Source of the DNA: Promethearchaeia archaeon
GTDB lineage: Archaea > Asgardarchaeota > Lokiarchaeia > Sigyniarchaeales > SOKP01
Length of the DNA: 10,044 nucleotides
Assembly (NCBI GenBank): GCA_046497275.1
Contig: JAWOFX010000117.1
Span: 1-10,044, forward strand
Direction: 5' to 3'
Below are positions 1 through 3,132 of the stretch, one piece after another; the first letter of the stretch is position 1, and each line of letters begins with the position of its first letter. Made by a program: the position numbers and the translations under genes. Under the pieces are notes generated by a model. The model ran no database searches, was not told the origin of the DNA, and worked only from the letters and a program-made list of their open reading frames with translations.

Positions 1-624
1 TTTTGCGGTATTTTCTTTCAATTTAATCCATAGTTCATTTATTTCTTTTCTCACTTCAAGGAATTGCTCAATTTTTTTGAGAAGGATATCTCTTGCTCTA
101 TCAAACTCTCGCTGCACATCATTTAGTTCTTGATCTATTTGATTTAGCTTATCGCCTTCAATCATTTTGTTTTTGGCTTTTTCTACATCTAGAGCTTTTT
201 TAATTACCACTTTTCGTTTTTCTGCTACCTCTTTTAACGCGTCTGCAAATTCTTCTTTCTTTGCTACCAAATAATCTTTTCTCACGGCTAAATCTTTCAT
301 TGCATTGAGATATTTATTATTTGCTTCTATGTATTCATCATTTTGACGGATTAATTGTTCCATAAGATTGACATCTTGTTCTTTTACATTTGATCTATGC
401 TCTCGAGCAAGCATTTGCATTTGTTTGTAGACATCTCTTAAAGTTCGATTGAGTGAGTCCCTTGTAATATTCATATCGGAAATTTTATCCGCGAGTTTTT
501 TTTGATTCTTAATAACTTTGCTCTGCTCTTTAGCTTGGTCTTTTAATTTATCCACAAGCTCATTTTCTAAGCGTGCGAGATCCAGTTCGTCTTCATGCGT
601 AATTATTGGAATGCATATCACCAC
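1..624 (-). CDS. Partial all-alpha-helical coiled-coil protein (>=208 codons, C-terminus beyond the left edge); possible BAR-like fold
   Basis: Translated by hand; not in the ORF track because no stop lies in the window. The frame is open from the in-frame TAA at 643-645 to base 1: VVICIPIITHEDELDLARLENELVDKLKDQAKEQSKVIKNQKKLADKISDMNITRDSLNRTLRDVYKQMQMLAREHRSNVKEQDVNLMEQLIRQNDEYIEANNKYLNAMKDLAVRKDYLVAKKEEFADALKEVAEKRKVVIKKALDVEKAKNKMIEGDKLNQIDQELNDVQREFDRARDILLKKIEQFLEVRKEINELWIKLKENTAK. It has one Pro, one Gly and heptad-like patterning. The start is uncertain (GTG 624/621 or ATT 612). CDS existence is well supported; the BAR call is tentative. Confidence 0.85.
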   Translation of the reverse strand, partial: MVICIPIITHEDELDLARLENELVDKLKDQAKEQSKVIKNQKKLADKISDMNITRDSLNRTLRDVYKQMQMLAREHRSNVKEQDVNLMEQLIRQNDEYIEANNKYLNAMKDLAVRKDYLVAKKEEFADALKEVAEKRKVVIKKALDVEKAKNKMIEGDKLNQIDQELNDVQREFDRARDILLKKIEQFLEVRKEINELWIKLKENTAK

Positions 625-720
625 ATTTTCTTTAATTTTAATTTATATTTTTTTAATTAAAATTGAATTAATCTATGCATACAATAAGAAAATTTAGACT
701 ATTATAATTTTTTCACATTC

Positions 721-2976: not shown

Positions 2977-3132
2977 TTATTCTTGCTTTTCTAAAGCTTG
3001 TTTAAGTTTTTCAAGTTCTTCTTGACGTTTCTTTTTCTCTTCCTCGATTTTCTTTCTTTCTTCCTCGCTTAAGCTCTGTAATTTTACTCCCTTTTTGATT
3101 TCGTTCTTAAGCTCATCATCCAGTTGTGGCAT
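2977..3132 (-). CDS. Unannotated 51-aa microprotein: WH2-like motif plus charged single alpha-helix
   Basis: Translated by hand: MPQLDDELKNEIKKGVKLQSLSEEERKKIEEEKKKRQEELEKLKQALEKQE*. ATG at 3132, TAA at 2979-2977, SD AAGGTG 8 nt upstream, BRE/TATA-like element upstream, T-tracts downstream. It is too short for the ORF track. Confidence refers to coding status; the WH2 function is inferred. Confidence 0.85.
   Translation of the reverse strand: MPQLDDELKNEIKKGVKLQSLSEEERKKIEEEKKKRQEELEKLKQALEKQE

Follow-up and report, generated by a model that had tools for sequence, protein, structure and literature searches.

Cultured Lokiarchaeia extend and retract actin-filled membrane protrusions. A BAR-type label was given to Asgard proteins by Eme et al. 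2023 (PMC10307638), who listed sparse 'Vps5-BAR' eukaryotic signature proteins by best Pfam hit, with a Vps28 fusion in Thorarchaeia, and proposed a function in membrane remodelling. Two unnamed 'BAR-domain proteins', not statistically significant, figure in the Lokiactin co-immunoprecipitations of a 2026 motility study of L. ossiferum (PMC13716822), and among bacteria a BAR-like sculpting of membranes, with outer membrane extensions and vesicles, has experimental support for BdpA of Shewanella oneidensis (PMC8687657). Here, I describe a gene from a Promethearchaeia archaeon of the Lokiarchaeia (order Sigyniarchaeales; assembly GCA_046497275.1, hereafter G000), located at the beginning of contig JAWOFX010000117.1 (C145), the entire 10,044 nt of which make up the window analysed. 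It encodes a helical protein predicted to fold and to dimerise on the building plan of BAR domains, and is referred to below as the BAR-like gene. The reading put forward, with a confidence that stays a little short of even, is that its product forms a compact dimeric scaffold of BAR-like build, active at the membrane or cell cortex jointly with the protein of a neighbouring adaptor gene.

What the family shares with the 'Vps5-BAR' proteins of Eme et al. 2023 (PMC10307638) is a BAR-type reading in Asgard archaea; it differs from them in having neither a Vps5 match nor fusions, and in being nearly universal, albeit in one order only. With BdpA (PMC8687657) it has in common the standing of a prokaryotic protein with proposed BAR domain-like activity, which in the present case is putative; a relationship between the two was neither looked for nor found. 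Unlike arfaptin and the classical BARs (arfaptin-2, amphiphysin, ACAP, APPL), with which it has no profile-level homology, it combines a long helix 1 (64 aa) with a short helix 3 (50 aa), and its two predicted chains overlap nearly completely, no arms or crescent being evident. The I-BAR/IMD domains (IRSp53, MIM, Pinkbar) are longer (~230-250 aa, with a fourth helix) and share no sequence link with it, nor was a WH2 or SH3 partner seen for it.

The frame begins with GTG at position 624 of the window, is read on the minus strand through 208 codons and runs off the window end. Its remainder lies on another contig of the same genome: window bases 1-191 are the reverse complement of bases 1-191 of contig C131, an exact 191-bp overlap with no other copy in the 3.85-Mb genome, and continuing the frame into C131 adds Leu-Ser-stop (C131 bases 192-200), completing a protein of 210 aa. 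The join is regarded as sound because homologues share the same C-terminal end (...ELS/KLS), because relatives keep, downstream of their copies, the gene that comes next on C131, and because 100-mers are shared by ten contig-end pairs, such overlaps being typical of this assembly. Incidentally, C145 and C131 being joinable end to end, the real contiguity of this assembly (188 contigs) is higher than the contig count implies. The GTG start is consistent with the closest full-length homologue, whose N-terminus reads MVISLPIIT. A first-pass annotation of the stretch, made from the letters alone, had seen an open minus-strand frame of at least 208 codons, which is confirmed; it had called the frame 'unlisted', whereas the protein already stands in public databases, under no name beyond 'hypothetical protein'.

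That the frame is a real gene is shown by its 513 homologues (E<=1e-3, word-index search) and their strong conservation: almost all are 206-210 aa long and 66-98% identical. Where they are named at all they are called 'hypothetical protein', and they carry no precomputed Pfam domain. An exhaustive search of 1.84 billion cluster representatives returned 31 clusters only, the most distant full-length members being 24-38% identical and the divergent ones metagenomic singletons. Longer or fused forms were looked for and not found, which is weak evidence on the point, and a PX domain is absent. Among 201 Asgard genomes sampled, with a threshold of E<=1e-5, 38 of the 40 that belong to the window's GTDB family hold the gene as a single copy, as do two of the three from the sister GTDB family within the order, whereas the search came up empty in the 158 Asgard genomes of 25 other families. 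The protein is, then, confined to a single order of Lokiarchaeia, in which nearly every genome has it. Identity across genera amounts to 66-70%, and mean column identity among close members is 77%, unusually high for a coiled-coil protein.

All 63 named genome loci belong to uncultured 'Promethearchaeota' (Lokiarchaeia) metagenome-assembled genomes, save a few with other labels. Eight records (L083, L084, L088, L092, L106, L117, L118 and L119) hold copies 65-69% identical under the names Thorarchaeota, Hermodarchaeota, Hodarchaeota, Odinarchaeota and even Thermoplasmata; their bin labels are probably wrong, because the family is otherwise restricted to one Lokiarchaeal order. Two distant members (L006:1459-2103 and L007:1289-1933) are 214 aa long at ~25% identity, and one of them is mis-named 'phage infection protein YhgE' in its source record.

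AlphaFold2, given an alignment of 19 sequences (23-83% identity), models the protein as a closed up-down-up three-helix bundle (pLDDT 90.6, pTM 0.75; Table 1). A monomer of ~200-250 aa with three long antiparallel helices, as is characteristic of the BAR superfamily, is thus found in the prediction. The first-pass annotation had expected an almost entirely helical protein of three to four segments, broken near EHRSNV and KMIEG, with a length (~200-230 aa) and a basic helix 2-helix 3 (H2-H3) tip like those of BAR domains. Its helicity, both breaks, which fall on the model loops 74-81 and 153-156, and the BAR-like length and tip agree with the 210-aa, three-helix model; only the fourth segment does not. 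Charged residues make up 40% of the sequence, the pI is 7.7 (family median 8.55), and the basic residues cluster at positions 26-50 and 131-153. The helices are preceded by a nearly invariant peptide, with the family consensus M(S)PIITHEDE, which is acidic/polar and non-helical in the model and may serve for docking or capping. An amphipathic H0 helix of the N-BAR type was considered for these nine residues and ruled out, the peptide being acidic and not helical in the model.

Searched against the PDB with Foldseek, the model draws a list dominated by the BAR superfamily (SNX1-SNX5, APPL, amphiphysin, Lsp1/Pil1, arfaptin, Vps5, FAM92A, endophilin and I-BARs), with weak E-values (>= 0.037) and TM-scores up to 0.56-0.60 (arfaptin 0.56/0.59; the I-BAR of IRSp53 0.60/0.55). 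An exhaustive structural alignment against 48,161 chains placed BAR domains in all top five positions, each aligned over 164-187 residues. The language-model neighbours, taken as leads only, are likewise BAR clusters; an archaeal FAM92/BAR cluster comes closest, at 0.85. A shape search of the ESM Atlas with the model yielded nothing informative.

Other long helical folds fare differently. It is scarcely probable that the protein is a polymerising coiled coil of the ESCRT-III/PspA/Vipp1 or SMC kind, even if it is all-helical and of similar size, and even if the Pfam profile Mod_r/Vps37, which describes an ESCRT-I coiled coil, matches two family members below threshold (E 0.0016-0.0035). Among the 19 family members there is no match to the Snf7 or PspA profiles of Pfam; the model is a closed up-down-up bundle and not a hairpin with trailing helices; and the structural matches to SMC proteins and the dynein stalk span two helices only. 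No ESCRT-III/PspA or SMC entry heads the structure lists, an absence that does not by itself exclude these folds, which the first-pass annotation had named as the ones that would speak against a BAR domain.

Two copies of the chain are predicted to pair. The interface score (ipSAE) is 0.73 in three runs, the best control giving 0.00; of 30 proteins with solved same-chain pairs 20 attain such a score, against 1 of 23 whose solved form is a single chain. At least 90% of contacts recur from run to run, with pLDDT of at least 84. The tightest contacts (23:61, 19:65, 16:68 and 44:44) describe two first helices running antiparallel (H1-H1') about a two-fold axis near residue 43, and the residues at this predicted interface are more hydrophobic than the remainder of each helix. 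Since the pairing of helix 1 is the core arrangement of BAR dimers, the antiparallel, H1-centred six-helix assembly of the superfamily is seen here too, by prediction. As to the BAR-like fold as a whole, the top structural matches and a predicted antiparallel homodimer with clean controls support the first-pass proposal; membership of any BAR family is not demonstrable.

Sequence comparison tells against the reading, and so do several traits of the dimer. Searches of Pfam, NCBIfam and PDB sequences with the protein returned coiled-coil noise only, and neither it nor the 19 family members match BAR (PF03114), Vps5 (PF09325), FAM92 (PF06730) or Arfaptin (PF06456); genome-wide six-frame searches with these four profiles put nothing on the BAR-like gene. 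In the predicted dimer, the partner chain is touched by residues 9-75 of helix 1 and by both ends of helix 2, so that the monomers overlap almost fully and leave no H2-H3 arms to form a crescent. Interface residues show no excess of conservation over other helix positions (p = 0.88) and thus lend no independent support to the dimer, and the homodimer score may partly reflect a likeness to solved helical dimers.

The same searches bear on a more specific proposal, that the protein is a true SNX/Vps5-type BAR, orthologous or directly homologous to the SNX-BAR subunits of retromer. The first-pass annotation leaned that way, comparing motifs in the segment with helices 2-3 of SNX1/Vps5, and the comparison is not supported: no Vps5, BAR, FAM92 or Arfaptin profile matches, and the structural alignment with the SNX1 BAR has 12% identity at an rmsd of 7.5 Å, arfaptin, ACAP and Lsp1 matching equally well or better. 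The Vps5 profile of Pfam finds nothing in the window's genome at E<=0.1 and exceeds its cut-off in none of the 201 Asgard genomes. No PX domain or fused form accompanies the protein, which starts nine residues ahead of helix 1, and the best Pfam hits on which the Asgard 'Vps5-BAR' assignments of Eme et al. 2023 rest are lacking here. Retromer-type homology is therefore held to be very unlikely. The best weak Vps5 match (L010) was rejected as a coiled-coil plus winged-helix protein.

A point of comparison is offered by a second, separate family of the same order, to which the language-model lead (the archaeal FAM92/BAR cluster) pointed. Its proteins, of ~215 aa, score above the Pfam cut-off for FAM92 in 13 of the 40 genomes of the window's GTDB family, where they co-occur with the BAR-like family; some also carry BAR or BAR_3 matches, and the NCBI name is 'BAR domain-containing protein'. 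The window's genome (98.9% complete) lacks this FAM92/CIBAR-like family (alignment A4), and the BAR-like protein is the only BAR-like one found there. The two families are alike in order, in length, in standing alone and in having three helices. Yet the comparison again weakens the case: the helices of the BAR-like protein measure 64, 71 and 50 residues with no H0, those of the control 37, 71 and 69 after an H0 at residues 2-12, and hhalign between the two families gave 23.5%, out of register, a result that also goes against the likeness to SNX1/Vps5. A broadened FAM92/BAR profile recovered close archaeal relatives only among the 120 matches listed, and no wider BAR profile was obtained from it. 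The BAR-like family is thus of BAR-like size and topology, but the real Asgard BAR family is distinctly the more canonical of the two, and no sequence link between them is detectable.

The reading as a BAR-like scaffold at membrane or cortex draws, in addition, on the gene downstream (the adaptor). Of 28 informative loci, spread over eight genera, 26 have it next in line and in the same orientation; the divergent genome G162 also keeps the two genes side by side, in swapped order. The BAR-like gene is conserved and linked to the adaptor gene. In the adaptor, a Pro/Gly-rich linker of the GPPGG type, itself variable, connects a conserved helical module at the N-terminus with a near-invariant C-terminus, SLRGAIMGELKxLFxKRK. 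When a profile of this end peptide was run over the 10,119 ORFs of the window's genome, one further ORF was significant (E 0.001), the matched part being the very end of the protein: it is a small GTPase of the Gtr1/RagA-Arf-like kind, the true start of which probably lies upstream of the first ATG, because the Pfam match begins at model position 26. Weighing against the pairing, the adaptor family occurs in 122 of the 201 Asgard genomes, across many families and mostly without a BAR-like protein, and so does not depend on it. No diverged BAR-like gene was found beside the adaptor in other Asgard families, where the neighbours are unrelated enzymes (e.g. PIG-L and UDG). As the adaptor is pan-Asgard and its partner restricted to an order, the pairing is an order-specific addition to a pan-Asgard adaptor.

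Taken together, these data have to be set against a plainer explanation, namely that the protein takes no part in membrane shaping and is a dimeric three-helix coiled coil of a generic kind, used as a scaffold or adaptor (for instance as a structural or regulatory subunit in a cytoplasmic complex, as a spacer associated with the cytoskeleton, or in partnership with the translation/RNA machinery), its BAR likeness being the common geometry of long bundles. This is a substantial alternative, rated well short of even. It gains from the lack of BAR-family profile links, from the armless, fully overlapped predicted dimer, from a very high conservation on all helix faces, as is expected of a protein with many protein partners, and from flanking genes of the housekeeping type (Pelota and radical SAM here; Pcc1 and L37ae by the distant members), which equally detract from a membrane role. 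It does not readily accommodate the fact that two structure searches with different aligners both put BAR chains first among full-length matches and that the nearest language-model clusters are BAR; moreover, the protein agrees with the BAR plan in its length, its three-helix topology, its antiparallel dimer centred on H1 and its basic tip, and the basic amphipathic end helix of the conserved neighbour, of a kind found also on a small GTPase, points to membranes or trafficking.

According to the favoured reading of a BAR-like scaffold, the gene would give rise to a stand-alone cytoplasmic protein of ~207-210 aa, each chain being modelled as an elongated three-helix bundle ~100 Å long. Two chains would lie antiparallel along the whole of helix 1 in a six-helix-bundle dimer, with lysine-rich patches predicted near the dimer centre and at both H2-H3 tips. 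The assembly would be a compact version of the BAR building plan that lacks arms, no sequence homology to BAR families being detectable, and its most likely role would be that of a dimeric scaffold presumably bound to the membrane or placed at the cell cortex, where it might sense or generate curvature. The scaffold would probably partner, by putative direct contact, the product of the adjacent gene, with its helical module, floppy Pro/Gly linker and basic amphipathic end helix; this last element, of the kind that closes the Rag/Arf-like GTPase, would tether the scaffold to the membrane or to a shared receptor.

If membrane binding holds, the protein is a concrete and easily expressed candidate for a missing membrane-shaping factor, with a BAR-like architecture discoverable only through structure prediction; Pfam-based searches like those of Eme et al. 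2023 would miss the family. If it does not, what is left is a protein of the Lokiarchaeal core whose gene is linked to that of a pan-Asgard adaptor. A bolder version takes the family for a hitherto unrecognised branch of the BAR superfamily, orphaned in sequence, and for part of the gene core of the order; with the pan-Asgard adaptor and the GTPase-shared end helix it would form a membrane-remodelling module adding to the dynamic protrusions. This is rather improbable; were it true, BAR-type scaffolds coupled to small-GTPase-style targeting would predate eukaryotes.

Table 1. Location of the BAR-like gene, its predicted parts and the related features discussed in the text; positions refer to the window or to the contig or locus named.
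Feature	Location	Strand	Basis and remarks
BAR-like coding sequence, codons 1-208 of 210	window 1..624	-	ORF, translation, contig overlap, homologues
N-terminal peptide, residues 1-9	window 598..624	-	alignments; pLDDT 59 for first block
Helix 1, residues 10-73 (64 aa)	window 406..597	-	model; basic cluster ~26-50; main predicted dimer interface
Loop 1, residues 74-81 (REHRSNVK), highly conserved	window 382..405	-	alignment, model; residues 77-80 in predicted interface
Helix 2, residues 82-152 (71 aa)	window 169..381	-	model; C-terminal basic cluster ...RKVVIKKALDVEKAKNK running into tip
Loop 2 (tip), residues 153-156 (MIEG)	window 157..168	-	model
Helix 3, residues 157-206 (50 aa), best-conserved helix (DKLN..DQELNDVQR.FDRAR)	window 7..156	-	alignment, model
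Candidate archaeal TATA box (TATAAAT), begins 23 nt upstream of GTG	window 641..647	-	sequence reading
Adaptor-like protein, 146 aa, 154 nt downstream of BAR-like gene	L002:355-795 = G000:C131	+	ORF, alignment
Gtr1/RagA-Arf-like small GTPase, C-terminal extension ending ...VRGQVLDELKQLFNKKKQ	L060:3297-4067 = G000:C47:27796-28566	-	end-helix profile, Pfam
FAM92/BAR-positive family, N-BAR type with amphipathic H0	L027-L040 (e.g. L027:617-1264)	+	Pfam

The BAR-like gene is preceded by a spacer of 96 nt, AT-rich and containing TATAAAT; the candidate box suggests, on the letters alone, a promoter of its own and a leaderless or near-leaderless mRNA. Further upstream, the window holds a radical SAM gene, Pelota, a 51-aa ORF, a GNAT gene, a second radical SAM gene and a nucleotidyltransferase, with RtcB and archease farther away, and the gene order upstream of the BAR-like gene is kept in relatives. 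The distant family members (L006 and L007) sit instead after L37ae and Pcc1 (KEOPS).

The 51-aa ORF (window 2977-3132, minus strand) lies between GNAT and Pelota, is conserved, is found also in L004 and L005, and reads ...DELKNEIKKGVKLQSL... followed by a highly charged helix; the ORF looks WH2-like by eye. The WH2 profile of Pfam matches neither this ORF nor the end helix of the adaptor, and the helix-to-basic spacing is unlike that of LKKV-type WH2 motifs; an actin-module (WH2) reading of the two is unsupported, though not disproved. Another ORF with a resemblance to the end helix (G000:C136:14766-15260, plus strand), of 164 aa, has a Roadblock/LC7-like N-terminus and ...INEELKELF... near its C-terminus, the match being weak (E 0.64). 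Downstream of the adaptor lies a conserved ORF of ~570-580 aa without a Pfam match (L061:1002-2744, plus strand; orthologue L004:7440-9146), and next after it, on the opposite strand, an Elf1-type zinc-ribbon gene.
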